Positions 10,381 to 64,000 of a DNA stretch of 64,000 nt are shown here, one piece after another. Positions within the stretch are counted from its first letter, which is position 1; each line of letters begins with the position of its first letter. Below the pieces are notes generated by a model. The model did no database searches. It saw only the letters and a program-made list of their open reading frames with translations, and was not told the DNA's origin. The stretch lies in IMG/VR virus record IMGVR_UViG_3300033066_002255; one strand, 5' to 3'. This stretch comes from a virus. Lineage: Duplodnaviria; Caudoviricetes. The position numbers and the translations under genes are program-made.

Positions 10381-10947
10381 ATGATATTAAGTGAATCATA
10401 TAAAAAGAGACTGCAAGAGCTTTCAGGTATTCAAGATGATACATATTCTTCATACAAAGGACTTGAGCCATATCAAAAAAGAAAAGAAGATTTCATAAAT
10501 TCAATAAAAAGCTTTTCAGATATTAATGATGATAAAATAAAAGAATTTATTTCTTACTTTGGGTATGAAGGATTTAATAGCGAAGAAGAAGCATATATCG
10601 ACTTGAAAGAAAAAATATCTTTTTACAAGGAAATGCCTAATCCAGTTATATTATATCGTGCAATTGGTGTAAAAAACAAAAAGATGATAAAAAATGACGA
10701 CTTAGGAGAGCATTATACACCTTATAAATGGAATATTGATACTGATATGTTAATGTCAATTGGATATGAAAATTGGGATGAAAATACGAAGCCTTATATA
10801 ATGGAGGTTTCAGTGCCGCATTCTGAAATAGATATTATTCAAACTATTATTCAAAATTTATCATTTCCAAATGAACACGAAATAAATTTAAAAAACAGCG
10901 GAAAAGGTGCTAAGTTTATAAAAGCATATAAATTAAAAGGATTTTAA
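10381..10947 (+). CDS. Putative ADP-ribosyltransferase-fold protein (R-S-E-like) with N-terminal head-targeting-like tag
   Basis: LYRAIGV...LGEHYT...FPNEHEINL (ExE); N-terminus MILSESYKKRLQELSGI. Confidence 0.5.
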   Translation: MILSESYKKRLQELSGIQDDTYSSYKGLEPYQKRKEDFINSIKSFSDINDDKIKEFISYFGYEGFNSEEEAYIDLKEKISFYKEMPNPVILYRAIGVKNKKMIKNDDLGEHYTPYKWNIDTDMLMSIGYENWDENTKPYIMEVSVPHSEIDIIQTIIQNLSFPNEHEINLKNSGKGAKFIKAYKLKGF

Positions 10948-27567: not shown

Positions 27568-28746
27568 TTACTCAGTTACAACTTTAATTATACAGTCACA
27601 CATCCTATTAATTTCTTCTTCTGTTAACTTAGGATGATTAGGTATATACATACCGCACTTATCGACTTTATTTACATTTTGTAATTCATTTCTACCGTAT
27701 TTTTTTATGTAAAAAGGCTGTGTACCCATAGAGCCACAAATAAGAGGTCTACATTCTACATTATTTTCGATTAAAGCTTTTGCAATTGCATTTTTTTCTT
27801 CTTCAGAGCTTGCAATTATTGGTATACAAAAACTTGCAGTAAAACTTCCTTCAACTTCTTGAGGAAACCATGTATATGGAGATAATTTTTCCTTAAAAAT
27901 TTGAAAGTTTTTATTTCTTTGAGCAATCATTTCATCAACCTTTTTTAGTTGTTCAATACCAATAACTGCTTGTAAATCTGTAGCTCTAACATTAAAGCCA
28001 GGAACATAAAAAGTATATAATGCAGAAAAATCATCTATTCCCCATTGCTCTCTTAATTCTTTTTGTCTTTCAGTATCAAGGTCTCTGTCCCAACCATGAC
28101 TTCTTAATTGCTTAAGCATATCATACACAGCTTTATCATTTGTACATATCATACCACCTTCAATGGTACTCATAGTATGTCCAAAATATGTAGAAAAAGA
28201 AGACATAAGTCCAAAATTTCCAAGTTTTATATCATTATATTTTGTACCTTGAGATTCGCAATTATCTTCTAATAATATTACACCATATTTTTTACAAAGC
28301 TCAACAATCTCATTCATTTTAGGAGAAAGTCCTAAAACTGAAACAAGAATCATTGCAGATGGCTTGTAGTTTTCAAAAATAATTTTAAGATGTTCTATGT
28401 CTACAGCTAAATTAGTAGGGTCTATATCTACAAGTATAGGGTCAAAACCTAATTGCATAACTGGAGCTAAATCTGTTGCCCAGCCAAGAGATGGTACTAC
28501 AATTCTTTTATTTCTAAGTTTATACATTTCAATTAATGCTGCAAGCATTAATAAATTTGCAGATGAACCAGAATTAACAAATACAGAATATTTACAACCA
28601 ATCCATTTAGACCACATTTCTTCAAATTCACGAACTTTATTTCCCTGAGTTAATCTTGGATATGTCTTTAACCATTCAATCAAATTGTCTATGTCGTCTT
28701 TGTCAATTGTATCTTTAACTAAAGTAATCTTTTCTGGATTTGTCAT
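27568..28746 (-). CDS. colD: PLP-dependent GDP-4-keto-6-deoxymannose 3-dehydratase (ColD-type DegT/DnrJ family)
   Basis: VNSGSSANLL, EDNCE, FSTYFGHTMSTIEGG (His at the usual Lys position), LRSHGWDR, PGFNVR. Confidence 0.75.
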   Translation of the reverse strand: MTNPEKITLVKDTIDKDDIDNLIEWLKTYPRLTQGNKVREFEEMWSKWIGCKYSVFVNSGSSANLLMLAALIEMYKLRNKRIVVPSLGWATDLAPVMQLGFDPILVDIDPTNLAVDIEHLKIIFENYKPSAMILVSVLGLSPKMNEIVELCKKYGVILLEDNCESQGTKYNDIKLGNFGLMSSFSTYFGHTMSTIEGGMICTNDKAVYDMLKQLRSHGWDRDLDTERQKELREQWGIDDFSALYTFYVPGFNVRATDLQAVIGIEQLKKVDEMIAQRNKNFQIFKEKLSPYTWFPQEVEGSFTASFCIPIIASSEEEKNAIAKALIENNVECRPLICGSMGTQPFYIKKYGRNELQNVNKVDKCGMYIPNHPKLTEEEINRMCDCIIKVVTE

Positions 28747-29741
28747 AAATCATTTATTTTTTTATTTATATTATTTTTTTCTATAAATTCGTTATAAGCC
28801 TTTGCGGCTTCTAATTCAGAATTATATGAACCAATATAATTATGTTTTCCATTAAAATAAACAGAAGATTCCCATTTTTGAGGCTTTTTTTTAAAGCTTA
28901 CTCCAAAATATTTAGAAGTTCTTTTTTTGTTAATATCTATTTTTTCCCAATTTGGGATTATGTTTAATTGAGCACTATTACCATATAATTCTAAAGCCTT
29001 TTTGTTATACGCTATCGCAGCATGAATTTCTTCTTTAAAGTGTCCTATGATAATAGATTTTCTATTAAATCTTACTGTTGCTCTCCAGAGTTTATCTTTA
29101 TTATCAATATAACTAACTCCAATATATTTTGAGCTTGTGTTTGAATTTTTAAAACCTAAAAGAGTTTTGGAAATTTTATTTTTTGTATCTTCTGAAGGCG
29201 GTAATCGTCTACTTTGAGATTCGCTCATTTTTATTTTAGATTCTGTAGAATGAGAACGACCTAAATTAGCTTTAGAAATTTTTTGACTTGTTTGCTTTTT
29301 AATGTCTTCTGGAATATTTTTATATGATATTCTTCTATTTTCTTTTTCTTGTTCAGATACTTTTCGTCCTAAGCATTTTCCCTTATTTGAATTGCCTATT
29401 TTATTTTTAGTTTCTTGAGACAATATCCTACCAGAAACGCCCTCTCCTCCATCTGTTGAATTAACTAAAATTCCCATGTTTTTATCTGCTCTACCAAAAA
29501 GTTTAATATAGAATTTTTCAGAAAAGTTACATAACTCTTCATTTTTACAAATCTTAATTAATTTAATTTCTGGGATTAAACTTTGTTTTTTAAGAGAATT
29601 AAGCCAATTGGTTTTATGAGTTTTTGTTTTATCTTTGAGATGACCATTAAACAAACGTCTATTTAAATTTTTAGTTGTTTTACCTACATATCTAACCTCA
29701 TTTGTTCTTGGGTCTATTAAAAAATATATTTTATATTCCAT
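28743..29741 (-). CDS. GIY-YIG homing endonuclease with NUMOD3 repeats and two AP2 DNA-binding domains (start revised to ATG 29741)
   Basis: KIYFLIDPRTNEVRYVGKT, N.TDGGEG, S.ETK.KI repeats, SKY.GVS...W......IG.F/Y..E..AA.AYN twice. Confidence 0.9.
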   Translation of the reverse strand: MEYKIYFLIDPRTNEVRYVGKTTKNLNRRLFNGHLKDKTKTHKTNWLNSLKKQSLIPEIKLIKICKNEELCNFSEKFYIKLFGRADKNMGILVNSTDGGEGVSGRILSQETKNKIGNSNKGKCLGRKVSEQEKENRRISYKNIPEDIKKQTSQKISKANLGRSHSTESKIKMSESQSRRLPPSEDTKNKISKTLLGFKNSNTSSKYIGVSYIDNKDKLWRATVRFNRKSIIIGHFKEEIHAAIAYNKKALELYGNSAQLNIIPNWEKIDINKKRTSKYFGVSFKKKPQKWESSVYFNGKHNYIGSYNSELEAAKAYNEFIEKNNINKKINDL

Positions 29742-29827
29742 GTTGCATTTTATTATAAATAGAATAAAAATTCCCAAACTGACAAAAGGCTTAAAATTTA
29801 AAACATTTTTTTGAAATATTTATTTAA

Positions 29828-30286
29828 ATGAATATAAGGAAAATTATTAGAGAAGTTTTGACTAATCATATAAAGAATTTAAATAAACCATATATAGTTA
29901 ATATTAATGGTGAAATGTTTTATCACCAAACCAATTGTAATAATATAAAATCCATAAAAGATAATGGCTTTAAAAGTGATTTACATAATGGTCAAGCAAG
30001 ATTTACTCATGGAGTATATTTTTTAAATCATCCAGAAGGAAGATATGGAGATTGTACGTTACAAGCTAATATTTATGGAAATTTTTTAGATTTCAGAGAT
30101 GAAAATGATATTTTGGGAGATAAATGGATTAATTTTAGAGACTCTTATGAATGGGATAATTATATAGATTTAACAATTAAAATGAGACAAGACAATAAAG
30201 ATATAGATGGTCTTATTTTTGATAATCTATTAGTTGTTTGGTATCCAGAAAAATGTATTAAAAATATTTCTGAATATAATTTGTAA
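29828..30286 (+). CDS. ADP-ribosyltransferase-fold (ART-PolyVal-like) protein with N-terminal tag
   Basis: FYHQT...IKDNGF...GVYF...YG...DIDGLI...VVWYP; N-terminus MNIRKIIREVL; TATTTAT at 29817. Confidence 0.55.
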   Translation: MNIRKIIREVLTNHIKNLNKPYIVNINGEMFYHQTNCNNIKSIKDNGFKSDLHNGQARFTHGVYFLNHPEGRYGDCTLQANIYGNFLDFRDENDILGDKWINFRDSYEWDNYIDLTIKMRQDNKDIDGLIFDNLLVVWYPEKCIKNISEYNL

Positions 30287-30294
30287 ACATAAAA

Positions 30295-30393
30295 TTAAAA
30301 CAAGTTGTTCTCAATTAAATTGTCAATATCATCTTTATCAATGGTATCCTTAACTAAAGGAATTCTTTCAAGGTTTTCATTATTTTCTGACAT
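30295..30393 (-). pseudogene. Orphaned 5' fragment of colD (32 codons)
   Basis: Translates MSENNENLERIPLVKDTIDKDDIDNLIENNLF*; 16 aa identical to the ColD N-terminus. Confidence 0.85.
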
Positions 30394-30440
30394 AATATAT
30401 TTTTTTAAAAAATAAGAATGAAAACCAATAAAGTAAATAA

Positions 30441-31358
30441 TTAAATAGAATTATTATCTAGCAAATATTGATAAGTAGTCTTTATTCCTTGTTCTAATTC
30501 TATAGATTTAAAATCAGGAATAACCCTTTTTAATGTTTCGATTGAAACATCTTTTCTATATTGGCCATCTGGATAGCTATCATCAAATTGTATAGTTAAT
30601 TTTTCAGCATCACAAGCTCTTAAAGCAATTTCAGCCATTTGTTTGATACTAAGATTTTCTTCTGTAGCAACATTCATATTATCAGTTATATCATTCTCCA
30701 AGCAATGATATATAACCTTAGCCAAATCATCTGAATGCATAAACTGCCTTAAAGGATTGCCTGTTCCAAATAATACAATTTTATCATCACCATTCTTTTT
30801 TGCAATATGAATTTTTTTAATTAAAGCTGCAATAAAATGACTATTATCTCCATATTTATCATGTTCACCATAAAGGTTGCATGGTATTAAATATTGATAA
30901 TTGGTGCCATATTGTTTGTTATAAGCATCTATTTGAACTGCTTGAGTTCTTTTTGCATAACCATAAGAAAAATTTGTAGGAGTTGGTGGTCCCTTATGTA
31001 AATCAGTCTCAACCATAGGATATGAATCTACTACATCAGGATATATACAAGTACTTAATATACCAATTAATCTTTCTACTCCATGTCTATAAGCGGAATC
31101 AACAACCAAAGTATTCATCAAAACATTGTCAGTAAAATATTCTGCAGGCTTATTGATATTATCTATAATGCCACCAACTTTTGCAGCGAGATGAATTACA
31201 GCTTCTGGTTTATAAAATTCAAACATAGCTTCTATATTTTCTGCAACAGTTAAATTAAATTCATTAGATGATAAAAACACAGCGGTGGGCATAAGTTTTT
31301 GTAATGATTTGCCAACCATGCCTGAGCCTCCTGTAACTACAATTCTTTTATATTTCAT
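30441..31358 (-). CDS. fcl: GDP-L-fucose/colitose synthase (Fcl/ColC-type reductase)
   Basis: VTGGSGMVG, HLAAKVGGI, STCIYP, YGYAKR, PCNLYG, GTGNPLRQF. Confidence 0.88.
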   Translation of the reverse strand: MKYKRIVVTGGSGMVGKSLQKLMPTAVFLSSNEFNLTVAENIEAMFEFYKPEAVIHLAAKVGGIIDNINKPAEYFTDNVLMNTLVVDSAYRHGVERLIGILSTCIYPDVVDSYPMVETDLHKGPPTPTNFSYGYAKRTQAVQIDAYNKQYGTNYQYLIPCNLYGEHDKYGDNSHFIAALIKKIHIAKKNGDDKIVLFGTGNPLRQFMHSDDLAKVIYHCLENDITDNMNVATEENLSIKQMAEIALRACDAEKLTIQFDDSYPDGQYRKDVSIETLKRVIPDFKSIELEQGIKTTYQYLLDNNSI

Positions 31359-31360
31359 AA

Positions 31361-32149
31361 TTAAATTTTTATCCAACCTTCACAATAAAGGTCATTTGTA
31401 TTATGATTTTCATATGCTGGACCAAACCATTTTGACGGAGCGATAACTTTTTTTTCTGGATTTGCATTTAACCATGCAGCCCACCAACTAAATGTAGAAT
31501 TACAAATAATATTATCATTACAATGACTCATAATATATAAATCTTCATAATCTTTATTCCCCTCTATAAATACAAACTTCTCTGGTAAATCTGGGAAATT
31601 TGCTTTACACCATGCGATATCATCTGAGAATATTAAGAATACAGTATCTTTGGGCATTTGTTTAATAGCCTTCATATAATAATTCATATTTTGCGTTGGA
31701 TGATGGTCTGGTGAATTTAAATAATCACCTCTTCTAACATGAATAGAACAAGTGTGTTTTGTTTCTAATATATTTTTTATTTCTTCTTTTATGTCAACAT
31801 CGTAAGATGTAAATAAATTTCTTATTTCATCTTCATATTCTTTAAAGTATTTTTCAGTTTGAAAATAGCCATAAAGTAATATGTTTTTATCTGGGGAGTC
31901 TTTTAATTCATTATAATGAAATCCACTTTCATTTATCTGTATTCTTCCGTTTCCTTGTGGTGTGTGATACAAATCAATATTTTTGAATATGTTATCATTA
32001 TAGACAGTAACATGCTGATGTTGACCGCTTGATTCTTGGCAATTAAATCCTACTGACTTATTATGTTTTTTACCATATGCATATGTAGCTGCAACTTGAA
32101 ACATATAGTTTCCAAGCCCTCCCATTAGTATCGCTGAAACTTCATTCAT
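31361..32149 (-). CDS. GT11 alpha-1,2-fucosyl/colitosyltransferase
   Basis: GGLGNYMFQ, GYFQTEKYF, HVRRGDY, FSDDIAWC, NSTFSWWAAWL. Confidence 0.92.
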   Translation of the reverse strand: MNEVSAILMGGLGNYMFQVAATYAYGKKHNKSVGFNCQESSGQHQHVTVYNDNIFKNIDLYHTPQGNGRIQINESGFHYNELKDSPDKNILLYGYFQTEKYFKEYEDEIRNLFTSYDVDIKEEIKNILETKHTCSIHVRRGDYLNSPDHHPTQNMNYYMKAIKQMPKDTVFLIFSDDIAWCKANFPDLPEKFVFIEGNKDYEDLYIMSHCNDNIICNSTFSWWAAWLNANPEKKVIAPSKWFGPAYENHNTNDLYCEGWIKI

Positions 32150-53821: not shown

Positions 53822-55480
53822 ATGAGTGAATTATTAAATAGCGGTAAGGTTGGTCTTACAATTTTCAAAACATTAGCAGAGCAAAGAACTGCTATCATGA
53901 ACAACTGGAAAGATTCTGGTTTGTTAGAAGGTTTGAAAGGAATGAAGAAATCTAACATCGCTCAGCTTTTAGAAAGCCAAGCACAATCAATGTTAAACGA
54001 GGTTACTCTTGATTCTTCTGCAGGAAGATTTGATACAGTAGCATTCCCAATCGTAAGAAGAGTTTTCTCAAGATTGTTAGCAAACGAGATTGTTTCAGTA
54101 CAACCTCTTGCTTTACCTTCTGGATTATTATTCTACATGGATGCGAGAGTATCTTTCAATGGAACTGATACAACATTTAACAACCCAGTATATCCTAACT
54201 TCCCTGATAACTCAGGTGCAGGTTCTTATAGCAAAGTAGCGCCAGCTAACACTGCTAACGGACAAGCTGGTCCAGTATTCGCAGATACAACTGCATACGA
54301 AAGATTCTATAACAACAGAGGTTTCGACTTATCATTTGGTACAGGTGAAACTGCAATGGGTACAACTAATGGTGCTCTTGCAAGTACTTGGACAGGTGGT
54401 ATCAAAGCGTTAAACTTCGCTTTAGGTACAGGATTTAACGTATCAAAACAACAATCATCAGCATCTTTATATTTATCTGCTGTAACAGCGATTTATTATT
54501 CAGGTTCTAACGGTAATACTCTTATCGTAGCAGCTGGTGGAAGAGTACCTTTCTACTCTCAAATCCAAACTTGGACTCAAGACCAATTCGCTAATAACGA
54601 ATTAGATGCAGTAGTTGACTTAAGAGTTAACGGTGTATATGGTTCTGATTTCAATCCAGCGATGTTAAACAACGGTGCTGGTACATTTGGAGCATCTTAC
54701 ACAATCAATATGGTTCCTGCTTACCAAGTTTATAATGACCTTGAAGCAAAATCAGAAATGGGAGAAATCACAATCAGATTCTCAAGTGTAACTGTAAATA
54801 CAATTACAAGAAAATTAAGAGCACACTGGACTCCAGAATTAGCTCAAGATTTAGAAGCTTACCATTCAATTGATGCTGAAGCTGAATTAACAGCTTTATT
54901 ATCTGAGCACATTGCTGCTGAGATTGATAGAGAAATCATCATCGAATTAATTAATGGTGCTCCTTTCAGAGCTAGATGGGATTACAAAGGGTTATCTAAC
55001 AATGCTAACTTCTTCGGTACTCAAAAAGACTGGAACCAAACTTTAATCACAAGAATTAACGAGATTTCTGCGCAAATCCACAAGGCTACTTTAAGAGGTG
55101 GTGCTAACTGGGTAGTTTGTTCTGCTGAAGCTGGTGCAATCTTCGATGATTTAGAATACTTCCACGTGGATGGTTCTGCTCAACCAGAGTCTGAAAAATA
55201 TAACTTAGGTGTTGAAAAAATTGGTAACTTAGGTTCAAGATATGTGGTTTACAAAGACCCTTATTTACCTGCGCCAATCGTATTAATCGGTCACAAAGGT
55301 TCTACCTTCTTAGAGGCTGGTTTCATCTACGCACCTTATATTCCACTTCAGTTAACTCAAACAATCTATGACCCTAACGATTTAACACCAAGAAAAGGTA
55401 TTATGACTCGTTACGCTAAGAAGATGGTTAACAACAGATTCTACGGTGTTATCTACATTGATAATATCAATACTTACTAA
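53822..55480 (+). CDS. Major capsid protein (T4 gp23-like)
   Basis: FPIVRRVF..L.A.EIVSVQP...PSGLLFY, TRKLRA.WTPELAQDL.AYH.IDAEAEL, YAPYIPL, P.KGIMTRY. Confidence 0.97.
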   Translation: MSELLNSGKVGLTIFKTLAEQRTAIMNNWKDSGLLEGLKGMKKSNIAQLLESQAQSMLNEVTLDSSAGRFDTVAFPIVRRVFSRLLANEIVSVQPLALPSGLLFYMDARVSFNGTDTTFNNPVYPNFPDNSGAGSYSKVAPANTANGQAGPVFADTTAYERFYNNRGFDLSFGTGETAMGTTNGALASTWTGGIKALNFALGTGFNVSKQQSSASLYLSAVTAIYYSGSNGNTLIVAAGGRVPFYSQIQTWTQDQFANNELDAVVDLRVNGVYGSDFNPAMLNNGAGTFGASYTINMVPAYQVYNDLEAKSEMGEITIRFSSVTVNTITRKLRAHWTPELAQDLEAYHSIDAEAELTALLSEHIAAEIDREIIIELINGAPFRARWDYKGLSNNANFFGTQKDWNQTLITRINEISAQIHKATLRGGANWVVCSAEAGAIFDDLEYFHVDGSAQPESEKYNLGVEKIGNLGSRYVVYKDPYLPAPIVLIGHKGSTFLEAGFIYAPYIPLQLTQTIYDPNDLTPRKGIMTRYAKKMVNNRFYGVIYIDNINTY

Positions 55481-61743: not shown

Positions 61744-64000
61744 ATGGCAACAATTTTCGTATCACCAGGAGTATACACTAAAGAGCAAGACTTTTCAGTT
61801 TTTGCATCTCGTATTGGTATTACCAGACTGGGGTTAGTTGGTAAGACTGAAAAAGGTCCAGCTTTTGAACCTATAAAGATTAGTACTTCTGATGAGTATG
61901 CTTTAAGATTTGGTGGGACAGACCCAGATTTACCATTATCTTATGTGGCAAACTCATTCTTAACTCAATCAAATGAATTGACTGTAACAAGAATTCTTGG
62001 TAATACAGGATTTGTTAACTCACCAGCTTGGATAATAGCAGCATCAATGAGCGGTTCTTCTTCAGGAGCAACTTTAGCTGTATTAAGAAGTAAGAAAAGT
62101 CAAATTGACAATACATTTTATTTTGACCAAGAGTCAGATATTAAAATAGGCGGAATTACTTCTGCGCTTGGAGATTTTATTTTATCAGGTACAACAGGTC
62201 CTTTAACAGCTGGAACTATTACTGTTTCTTTAGATGAAACTAAAGATAGTTATATTACAAAAATTTTAGGTAAGAGTCCAAAAGTTATTTCTGGATTACC
62301 AAATTTCTATGTTGAAACAATTTATCCACACTTCTTAAGAGAAGCTGTTAATAGAGGAGCTGTTTTAAATATATTCAGTGCAACTGTATATACTCAAGAA
62401 GGTTCATACACAGATTATCAAAGTAGTTATACAAACGCTATAACTCCTTGGGTAGTTGGTAGAGTAGTAGGAGGAAGTGTAAGAGAATTATTTAGAGTTC
62501 AAACTATTTCTGATGGTGATGGTTCTAATAGAGAAATTAAAATTTCTATTGCAAATATTGACATTGTAAATTATACATTCGATTTAATTGTAAGAAGATT
62601 TGATGATACAGATGCAACAGCTTCTTCTTCAGCACTTGAAAGATGGTCAAATCTTTCTTTTGACCCAAGAAGTACAACTTACATTGGAAAGGTAATCGGT
62701 ACAACAGATGAATCTTATCCAAGAAAATCATCTTTCATTACTGTTGATATTGCTGAAAATGTTCCTACAACTTCAGTTCCAGCTGGTTTTAAAGGTTATA
62801 CTTTAAGAACTTCTGGTGTAAGTGGAACAACAGCTCCAGGGCTTTATTATAAAACAACTTATTTCTCAGGAGATTCTAAATTCAAGACTTATCTTGGTAT
62901 TTCTGAATTAGCTTATACAAGCTTAACTCAGAATATGGTTTCTACAAGAAATTCAGTTAAAACTTTAGAAGCAGATTTATTCGCTTATTATGGTGGTGTA
63001 GCAAGTGGTACAACTACAACTAAAGGTTTCCACTTAGAGAATACTGCTGATGCGTCTTTATTTATTAGTGGAAATAAAAATAGTTTAACAGCTTATACAA
63101 ATGATGCTCAAACTTTAATTGATAAGACTTTATTAAAGTTCACATTAGTACCATATGGTGGTTTTGATGGATGGGATAAATATAAGCAATATTCATATAC
63201 TTATGAAGAATTTAAAGATGCTTATCAAGATAATGTAGATGAATTTAAAGCAGGTATTGATACAATGGCAAATCCTGAAGAAGTAGATATTAACTTATTT
63301 GCTACTCCTGGTATTGACTTCTCAAATAATGAGACAGTTATTAGATATGCTCTTGATATGATTGAAAATAGAGCTGATTCTCTTTATATTATTGATTCTC
63401 CAAGATTAACTGTAGGTACTGAAAAAGGTACACCAGAAGAACTTGTATCAAGATTAGAGGCAACAGGTATTGATAGTAACTATTCTGCTACTTACTGGCC
63501 ATGGATTCAAATTGAAGATAATACAAGTAACTTATATACTTATCAATCTCCAACATTATTAGTTGTAAGAGCTATCGCCTTTACAGATAACGTTGCAGCT
63601 CCTTGGTTTGCTCCAGCAGGTCTTAATAGAGGTCTTGCAGGTGCAGGTGTTATCAGAACAGATATTAAGGCTGGTAAAGATGAGAGAGATGTATTATATG
63701 CAGGAAGAATTAATCCAGTTGCATTCTATATTCAACAAGGTATTTCATTGTGGGGTCAAAAGACAATGCAAGTTAGACAATCTGCTCTTGATAGAATTAA
63801 TGTTAGGAGATTACTTCTTCAAGTAAGAAGATTGGTTTCTGCTGCATCTTTAGGATTAGTTTTCGAACAAAACGACCAAACTTTAAGAGACCAATTCTTA
63901 GCAAAGGTAGAACCTATTTTATTACAAATCCAAAACCAAAGAGGTTTAACAGCATTCAAAGTTGTTATGGATGATAGCAATAATACAGCTGATACAATTG
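61744..64000 (+). CDS. Contractile tail sheath protein (gp18-like), truncated at window end; absent from the ORF track
   Basis: MATIFVSPGVYTKEQDFS, G.T.KGPAFEP, YSATYWPW, PWFAPAGLNRG, WGQKT.Q...SALDRINVRRLL, FEQND. Confidence 0.95.
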   Translation, partial: MATIFVSPGVYTKEQDFSVFASRIGITRLGLVGKTEKGPAFEPIKISTSDEYALRFGGTDPDLPLSYVANSFLTQSNELTVTRILGNTGFVNSPAWIIAASMSGSSSGATLAVLRSKKSQIDNTFYFDQESDIKIGGITSALGDFILSGTTGPLTAGTITVSLDETKDSYITKILGKSPKVISGLPNFYVETIYPHFLREAVNRGAVLNIFSATVYTQEGSYTDYQSSYTNAITPWVVGRVVGGSVRELFRVQTISDGDGSNREIKISIANIDIVNYTFDLIVRRFDDTDATASSSALERWSNLSFDPRSTTYIGKVIGTTDESYPRKSSFITVDIAENVPTTSVPAGFKGYTLRTSGVSGTTAPGLYYKTTYFSGDSKFKTYLGISELAYTSLTQNMVSTRNSVKTLEADLFAYYGGVASGTTTTKGFHLENTADASLFISGNKNSLTAYTNDAQTLIDKTLLKFTLVPYGGFDGWDKYKQYSYTYEEFKDAYQDNVDEFKAGIDTMANPEEVDINLFATPGIDFSNNETVIRYALDMIENRADSLYIIDSPRLTVGTEKGTPEELVSRLEATGIDSNYSATYWPWIQIEDNTSNLYTYQSPTLLVVRAIAFTDNVAAPWFAPAGLNRGLAGAGVIRTDIKAGKDERDVLYAGRINPVAFYIQQGISLWGQKTMQVRQSALDRINVRRLLLQVRRLVSAASLGLVFEQNDQTLRDQFLAKVEPILLQIQNQRGLTAFKVVMDDSNNTADTI

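Follow-up and report, generated by a model that had tools for sequence, protein, structure and literature searches.

A second colD gene start beside a Seg-like endonuclease gene in an uncultured T4-like phage: a probable footprint of one-sided intronless homing

The sequence analyzed here is a stretch of 64,000 nucleotides from the IMG/VR virus record IMGVR_UViG_3300033066_002255 (Caudoviricetes), referred to below as the window. The subject is a locus on its minus strand in which a gene for a predicted free-standing homing endonuclease is placed between two copies of the start of colD, a gene for a DegT-family sugar 3-dehydratase-like enzyme. The G+C content of the window is 24-35%, a Gp23-type major capsid protein is encoded at 53822-55480, and a tail sheath gene begins at 61744. 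Because of these capsid and sheath genes, and because the nearest cultured capsid relatives are Flavobacterium myoviruses of approximately 160 kb (44% identity), the window is assigned to an uncultured T4-like myovirus. The region gave no match by blastn among 50,697 cultured-phage records.

Read along the minus strand from position 31376, the locus comprises an fcl-like gene, a spacer of 47 nt, an open reading frame (ORF) of 32 codons, a gene of 152 codons on the opposite strand, the endonuclease gene, and colD. The fcl-like gene (30441-31376, minus strand) encodes a GDP-fucose-synthase-type epimerase/reductase (Pfam Epimerase, E 1.1e-47), although its top NCBIfam match, GDP-L-fucose synthase, falls under the cut-off of that model. 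It is collinear with the metagenomic contigs L006 and L018, two relatives that carry no endonuclease between fcl and colD, and would be part of the recipient backbone in the reading proposed below. The intact colD (27568-28746, minus strand) encodes 392 amino acids with a full-length DegT_DnrJ_EryC1 match (E 1.9e-68). Its best NCBIfam match, RfbH, reaches 205 bits against a cut-off of 423 bits, and the name colD, which rests partly on the fcl-like neighbor, should be taken as that of a probable sugar 3-dehydratase-like member of the DegT family. A gene for a phage DNA-transfer protein (PHROG match) adjoins colD.

The 32-codon ORF (30393-30295, minus strand) consists of a colD start of 28 amino acids followed by NNLF and a stop codon. 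A preliminary description of this DNA had reported both this arrangement and the intact colD, and both are present. The 28 codons (30310-30393, minus strand) would be the remnant of the recipient's own gene, as 27 of the 28 residues recur at the N-terminus of P0001, the complete colD protein (396 aa) of L006. In L006, which has no endonuclease gene, the order is GT11-fcl-colD with a spacer of 48 nt before colD, and the 47-nt spacer in front of the window's remnant (30394-30440, minus strand) aligns with it, so that it probably represents the ancestral fcl-colD spacer. Only 6 of the 84 nt of the remnant differ from L006. Since five of these differences are synonymous and one is non-synonymous, the remnant seems little decayed, which suggests few changes since the insertion. 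Collinearity with L006 breaks off exactly at 30311/30310. Beyond this point, 23 nt (30287-30309) separate the remnant from the stop codon of the opposite-strand gene. They provide the out-of-frame NNLF and stop (30295-30309) and are homologous neither to colD nor to the sequences that flank the relatives of the opposite-strand gene; in the proposed reading they are the left, illegitimate junction.

The preliminary description had also noted two 48-nt copies with the same amino acids and eight codon differences, all of them synonymous, and a recount gave the same result. The repeat itself can now be extended: the top family of the repeat finder is a direct-repeat pair of 66 nt with 80% identity and a spacing of 1635, with one copy in the working colD (28676-28741) and its partner in the remnant (30311-30376), which takes in the diverged residues ahead of LVKD as well. 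No further scraps of colD were found in the window. Between the 48-nt cores (28675-28722 and 30310-30357) the 16 residues are the same, and the eight differences, six of them transitions, all fall in third positions. In a simulation of eight random substitutions, none of 200,000 sets was entirely synonymous. The match between the copies is thus not due to chance and, since every difference is synonymous, each copy appears to have evolved as the start of a working gene before the two were joined.

The same arrangement was found in two other assemblies from different samples. L029 (JGI 3300020577) shows 5 mismatches over 5545 nt (99.91% identity), all of them in fcl and GT11, and L030 (SRR32380195) is 100% identical over 4153 nt. 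Because these independent assemblies carry the structure, an assembly artefact is excluded, and the arrangement in the window is a circulating genotype.

The endonuclease gene (28743-29741, minus strand, with its ATG at 29741) encodes a Seg-like protein of 332 aa with GIY-YIG, NUMOD3 repeat and AP2 DNA-binding domains. The GIY-YIG domain (PF01541, cut-off 22.6) reaches 28.6 bits, NUMOD3 27.3 bits and AP2 39.2 bits, all of them above their cut-offs, and the PHROG matches are homing or HNH endonuclease families. The relatives in cultured phages are approximately 30% identical and are annotated as Seg-like or intron-associated endonucleases. A sequence search of the PDB matched the AP2 region to a solved AP2 protein and found no GIY-YIG structure. 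No second copy of the nuclease was found within the window. The gene has the same length as its counterpart in the contigs L007 and L010, with pN 0.041 and pS 0.324. Since the ratio is close to 0.13 and the length is unchanged, the nuclease is apparently intact and kept by purifying selection, and its cutting activity is predicted. Its stop codon overlaps the colD start codon as ATGA, as had been described before, and this overlap is the same in four other nuclease-bearing contigs. Furthermore, a search with Rfam over 28500-30500 on both strands, accepting E-values up to 1, gave no match and revealed no ribozyme structure. No intron is detectable there, which agrees with the earlier description of a non-splicing element.

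The colD homologues were collected from a search space of 5.8 billion proteins, which yielded thousands of them, the nearest with 85-91% identity. A colD scan of metagenomes gave 11 loci, of which L018, L019 and L021 alone were near enough for use. A scan of IMG/VR with the nuclease protein gave a single partial match (L005, 40% identity). At the DNA level, the relatives are only about 78-85% identical to the window. The N-termini of the colD homologues sort into classes. On one side is P0001 of L006, with 91% overall identity to the colD of the window; L018 is the second relative in which fcl and colD are adjacent and no cassette is present. The preliminary description had called for a comparison with colD from such relatives, and both L006 and L018 have the type of start found in the 32-codon fragment. 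On the other side are P0006, P0007, P0009 and P0010 (392 aa, 85% overall identity), whose start is identical to that of the working colD of the window. Their contigs (L007, L009, L010 and L011) have a 332-aa GIY-YIG/AP2 gene directly upstream of colD and share the ATGA overlap.

This division is also visible within the window. Its collinearity with L006 covers 31872-30311 and resumes at 28734-27406, past the colD stop and into the next gene. On the other hand, 29837-27560 aligns with L007 and L010 at 85% identity, and collinearity with L007 ends at the colD stop. Because of this pattern, the backbone on both sides is considered of the cassette-free type, and the nuclease and the colD start of the L007 type. 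The working colD shows the change between the two types within the gene. Residues 1-60 are 100% identical to the nuclease-linked P0006, P0007, P0009 and P0010, whereas residues 70-392 are nearest to the cassette-free P0001 (90.7%, compared with 82% to the nuclease-linked alleles). Informative sites in the protein are divided 8:0 (nuclease-linked to nuclease-free) up to residue 39 and 7:35 from residue 69 onwards (p 1.2e-5); in the DNA they are divided 29:4 to the left and 91:110 to the right of the breakpoint (p 3e-6). The right-hand crossover is best placed by DNA at nt 126-138 of the gene and by protein at residues 39-69. The gene is therefore composed of an imported donor-type 5' tract (28610-28746, minus strand) of approximately 130-200 nt, which goes beyond the 48-nt repeat and was probably co-converted with the nuclease, and of a recipient-type remainder (27568-28609, minus strand). 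In other words, the working colD is a chimera of a nuclease-linked start and a cassette-free remainder, and host-gene sequence flanking the nuclease has the pattern expected of a co-conversion tract beside a homing endonuclease gene.

The nuclease is absent from L006, L018 and L001-L004, present in the window, L007, L009-L011, L029 and L030, and decayed in L021; it is thus polymorphic in presence at one locus among related genomes. Among 120 colD homologues, 12 alleles have a short start M(T/I)N.EKIT, and in 10 of these 12 it goes together with TQG or THG in place of the near-universal TKG; TQG or THG was found in none of the 108 others. As judged from these residues, the nuclease-linked colD 5' end is a distinct allele class. 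A search of IMG/VR with a degenerate DNA pattern of this start gave zero matches. At the L021 locus (466-800), fcl and an opposite-strand ORF of 78 codons are followed by a nuclease relic of 70 nt and then by a colD with a hybrid start (MTNPE followed by RIP). The relic corresponds to the AP2-coding 3' end of the nuclease and matches window positions 28895-28826, so that L021 looks like a later, decayed stage of the cycle on an fcl backbone.

Other genes are also present around colD, and in the nuclease-bearing phages these are further mobile genes. In L007 (2616-3446) and L009 (1810-2640), colD and a gene of the GDP-mannose-dehydratase-like type are separated by a LAGLIDADG endonuclease gene, and an IS200-type Y1 transposase gene is located just after colD in L010 (3304-3825) and L011 (2167-2688). 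In the IMG/VR relatives L001 (4472-5923) and L003 (4976-5917), fcl and colD are separated by a gene of 483 aa or 313 aa with no assigned function, so that phages without the nuclease also vary at this junction.

Taken together, the structure is probably the footprint of one-sided, half-illegitimate intronless homing by a Seg-like free-standing GIY-YIG endonuclease, in which the crossover inside colD was homologous and the left junction after codon 28 was illegitimate. The cell would have been co-infected by a nuclease-bearing phage and by a nuclease-free phage with colD directly after fcl. The nuclease-free colD would have been broken near its 5' end, at about nt 84-140, in or near the stretch that codes for WLKTYPRLTKG. 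This interval is proposed because the break would lie at codon 28 or just 3' of it, and ahead of the crossover. The near-invariant WLKTYPRLTKG stretch is also where the nuclease-linked alleles differ (TQG or THG versus TKG). The downstream broken end would then have invaded the donor colD and copied leftward through the donor colD start, the nuclease and material upstream of it, which either already held the opposite-strand cargo gene or gained it later. The other end would have been joined illegitimately just after codon 28 of the recipient colD. Conventional homing needs shared sequence on both sides; here the recipient has fcl upstream of colD and the known donors have something else, and since two such phages have no common sequence there, the left join would be non-homologous. 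The product would consist of the recipient promoter region, the 28-codon remnant, the cargo gene, the nuclease, approximately 130-200 nt of donor colD start and the recipient remainder of colD. We infer that the nuclease made the break, where it cut, and how the left junction was formed.

Two claims of the preliminary description need to be reworded in this light. It had proposed that an element invaded a coding sequence, which is true of this genome, where the insert follows codon 28 of colD; in its home lineage, the nuclease is free-standing upstream of colD. It had also proposed that the nuclease brought a recoded 5' end. The start is indeed the same as in the four nuclease-linked colD genes, but the supposed recoding is better seen as natural allele divergence: the synonymous differences appear to reflect an earlier separation of two alleles, each under purifying selection. 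Plausibly, some of these differences protect the nuclease-linked allele from being cut by its own nuclease.

Several observations weigh against one-sided homing or against parts of it. P0008 and P0016 have the nuclease-type start and yet carry TKG. The 48-nt core of the working copy shows nine synonymous differences from L007, compared with two in the other 87 nt of the tract. Four of the nine equalise the working copy with the remnant and five are private to it, including three changes from GAT to GAC; this excess could possibly be due to extra mosaicism or patchy mismatch repair, to an unsampled donor allele, or to later selection. The direction and number of the steps were rebuilt from distant proxies (about 78-85% DNA identity), and both the position of the cut and the resistance of the allele now in place are predictions. 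Finally, no donor with the cargo gene beside the nuclease was found among the relatives compared, and the segment 29838-30309 may have arrived separately. Concerning codon usage in the working copy at 28675-28722, four of its five Asp codons are GAC, in a genome of approximately 28% G+C in which the other alleles mostly use GAT, and of the 11 synonymous changes that separate the first 135 nt from L007, 9 sit within these positions.

The structure could also have been formed if co-infecting phages recombined illegitimately in the colD region independently of the nuclease, which would then be a passenger. This explanation seems rather unlikely to us, but it draws on the character of the region as a hot spot of unrelated mobile genes, with LAGLIDADG in L007 and L009, the Y1 transposase in L010 and L011, and differing cargo upstream of the nuclease; on the insert part 29838-30309, which is not common to the nuclease-bearing relatives; and on the fact that cutting of colD by the nuclease is a prediction. 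A mere passenger would not account so readily for a transferred tract centred on an intact nuclease under purifying selection, for the end of this tract in a short homologous crossover in the adjoining gene, as break repair predicts (PMC2988022), or for a distinct nuclease-linked class of colD starts such as repeated co-conversion would give. A very improbable origin is the tandem duplication of colD in situ around the nuclease, with most of the upstream copy deleted and the rest left to drift. A direct repeat around the insert is the expected residue of a decayed tandem duplication, and a T-even Seg endonuclease has been reported to promote segmental tandem amplification (PMC13096335). However, the remnant is of the L006/P0001 type and the working start of the L007/P0006 type, and these lineages exist separately in other phages. 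Eight core differences that are all synonymous are not what drift in a dead copy gives, and the working colD is itself chimeric. The preliminary description had considered a whole-gene duplication unrelated to the nuclease as the alternative that would overturn it, and the origin of the two copies in two allele lineages contradicts such a duplication.

Removal of 28675-30309 would yield one continuous colD frame, as expected if the upstream start were the first exon of a gene interrupted by a group I intron or a similar splicing element. Against this, the interval contains another full colD start, ATG included, and two protein genes on opposite strands, and the Rfam search described above was without a match. 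An assembly chimera of co-occurring strains would similarly have to have arisen again in both L029 and L030, at the identities given above. We therefore regard splicing and chimeric assembly as extremely unlikely. It is also highly doubtful that the 32-codon remnant owes its retention to a present function. Translated as an upstream ORF, it might for instance tune how far transcription or translation reads through into the cassette. Its ATG, upstream spacer and open frame have been kept, and it is unchanged in three assemblies; but these are essentially one genotype, which makes the conservation uninformative, no such remnant occurs in the other contigs compared, and L021 is a case of relic loss rather than retention.

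One-sided homing, which we prefer, can be compared with several known systems. In T4, Seg endonucleases cause co-conversion of flanking sequence and marker exclusion, and promoters for the downstream gene lie inside segG (PMC2988022). The locus in the window resembles SegF (soc/56) and SegG (32/59) in that a free-standing GIY-YIG gene is located beside its presumed target gene, its presence is polymorphic, the flank appears co-converted, a promoter-like motif for the downstream gene lies in the nuclease 3' end (compare the gene 32 promoters in segG), and the host is a T4-like myovirus. It differs in that the nuclease carries AP2 domains, shares no more than about 30% identity with proteins annotated as Seg-like, and has a predicted cutting activity. 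Moreover, classical homing relies on two homologous sides, and no duplicate is left. Here homology is missing on one side, part of the target gene is present twice, and the element has come to lie within the reading frame. A precedent for such an event is the one-sided homing of the T4 td intron (Parker, Belisle, Belfort 1999, summarised in PMC2988022), which likewise combines homology on one side with a non-homologous junction on the other. One-sided homing with illegitimate repair at microhomologies has been proposed for T4 as a route to ectopic sites (PMC2988022). That work used a laboratory plasmid-phage system with an intron; the window holds what appears to be a natural event with a free-standing nuclease in an environmental phage population, in which donor-like, recipient-like and decayed states can be identified.

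The mORFs of fungal mitochondria (Allomyces macrogynus atp6; Glomus sp. atp6, atp9, cox2 and nad3; PMC3630166) show a comparable replacement of a gene end and are the closest precedent. In these, an endonuclease travels with a foreign host-gene end, which replaces the native end in the expressed gene. The native end persists as a second copy on the far side of the endonuclease and is nearer to the sequence of relatives than the inserted one. The colD locus has the same combination, with the recipient-type start 1.6 kb upstream. It lacks a replaced 3' end or an in-frame fusion: mORFs are found in organelles and concern the 3' (C-terminal) end, and endonuclease and host gene often form one in-frame fusion, while at this phage locus the 5' end is concerned and the nuclease has an ORF of its own upstream, with the ATGA overlap. 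Free-standing endonucleases inside phage coding regions without a splicing element are also found in Aeh1 nrdA with mobE and in T4 gene 39/60 with mobA (PMC2988022). There, neither piece is dispensable and the two come together again as subunits, whereas here the downstream gene is complete and the 28-codon piece is redundant. The homing endonuclease gene (HEG) islands of ICP1-like phages (PMC10448857) are similar in having a nuclease at a recombination boundary between lineages, with variable cargo beside it and no sharp edges, but no duplication or remnants of a target-gene end were found in the text searched. A full-text literature search found no account of such target-gene end relics beside phage free-standing nucleases.

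It has long been asked by what route free-standing homing endonucleases arrive at new sites and in genomes without synteny, and the proposal made for T4, illegitimate one-sided break repair, was built on engineered crosses. At this locus the probable footprint of such repair, otherwise observed chiefly in the laboratory, can be read from nature, with four states legible in environmental sequence: the recipient-like fcl-colD, the donor-like nuclease-colD, the product, and the decayed relic of 70 nt. It is a clean natural footprint and not a new principle. It narrows the likely cut site to approximately 60 nt of a highly conserved coding stretch, and it extends to phages and to 5' ends the fungal-mitochondrial phenomenon of an endonuclease accompanied by a replacement gene end. 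For annotation, it calls for caution with short 'orphan' ORFs beside nucleases, which can be relics of a neighboring gene; for phylogeny, genes beside such nucleases can be inter-lineage chimeras and mislead trees. As a more tentative generalisation, which we put forward as possible but would not count on, the free-standing homing endonucleases of phages may often move as autonomous units, each with a pre-immunised end of the neighboring gene (here the 5' end and a promoter). One-sided homology would then suffice, non-syntenic phages could be colonised, intergenic nucleases could become in-gene inserts and leave datable gene-end relics, and the extra synonymous changes in the working 48-nt copy could reflect selection against repeat pairing or re-cleavage.

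Regarding the expression of colD, the preliminary description had proposed that its translation is coupled to that of the nuclease. A late-promoter-like motif provides a possible second route. The T4-type late-promoter motif TATAAATA is found in the 3' end of the nuclease gene (28763-28770, minus strand), 24 nt before the colD ATG; it is kept in L007 and L010 and absent from the L006 spacer. Of the 28 copies of TATAAATA in the window, nine precede a gene start on their own strand by no more than 120 nt, compared with 6% expected, an enrichment that is perhaps partly compositional. As a hint only, colD may be served by its own late-promoter-like TATAAATA. A scan for sigma-70 promoters and terminators gave counts equal to the shuffled expectation.

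The 5' flank of the nuclease (29742-29837, minus strand) is common to L007 and L010, and blastn homology to both begins at 29837, which is 96 nt ahead of the nuclease start codon. In L007 and L010, a sense-strand TATAAATA precedes this start codon by 20 nt, and the window has a deletion of 1 nt there (TTATAATA; 29742-29765), so that the nuclease's own late-promoter-like motif may be weakened in the window genome. An invariant, fairly G+C-rich 19-mer was also found in this otherwise diverged flank (window 29771-29789, minus strand CCTTTTGTCAGTTTGGGAA; L007 105-123; L010 942-960). Its reverse complement resembles the stretch of nuclease-free colD alleles that codes for YP(K/R)LTKG, with 4 errors in L001 and L004 and 5 errors in L006. 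This stretch belongs to the presumed cut region; the chance background is about five such matches per 128 kb, and the post-hoc p is approximately 0.01-0.02. The 19-mer may be a candidate operator that resembles the homing site, as in I-TevI, and is a weak lead.

The opposite-strand cargo gene, ORF152 (29828-30286, plus strand), is divergently oriented from the nuclease and encodes a small protein of 152 aa with a predicted ADP-ribosyltransferase (ART) fold. It has no Pfam or PHROG match, and an IMG/VR scan with the protein gave no match. Its family has 14 members, which are solitary, often on the opposite strand, and located in unrelated phage neighborhoods. The version of the protein found in the window is recorded on contigs as long as 159 kb. 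The AlphaFold model has a pLDDT of 86.7, and the top Foldseek matches are all ART domains of the H-Y-E clade, with E-values from 2.5e-3. With VIA-align, the model gives Z 9.4 and an rmsd of 3.4 A over 120-126 residues against the catalytic domain of diphtheria toxin, and Z 7.4-8.0 against PARP1, MbcT and NatT. By its modelled structure, ORF152 belongs to the ART fold, in the H-Y-E (diphtheria-toxin/PARP/MbcT) clade. H33 and Y64, candidates for the catalytic H and Y, are invariant across the 14-member family. A copy of TATAAATA is found at 29754, 74 nt upstream of ORF152.

The preliminary description had treated the insert as a single endonuclease cassette. The nuclease and the colD start do hold together as a unit, but the ART-fold gene is a separate module. 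Its relatives share homology only in the coding region (70-77% identity), and their flanks have no homology to the window. In L010, a DUF4326 gene takes the place of ORF152 beyond 29837. Because homology to L007 and L010 stops at 29837 and because the ORF152 family is solitary elsewhere, the insert is considered composite.

A link of another kind was seen between this family and a distant gene of the window (10381-10947, plus strand). The first 17 residues of its product match the N-terminus of the ART-fold members P0124, P0122 and P0123 at 13 of 17 positions (MxLSESYxKRLQELxG). Beyond this shared N-terminus, the product and the ART-fold members are unrelated. The gene also has TATAAATA 67 nt upstream. 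The shared residues look like an N-terminal leader and may be a capsid-targeting or prohead-protease (L-x-E) signal, by analogy with the T4 internal proteins.

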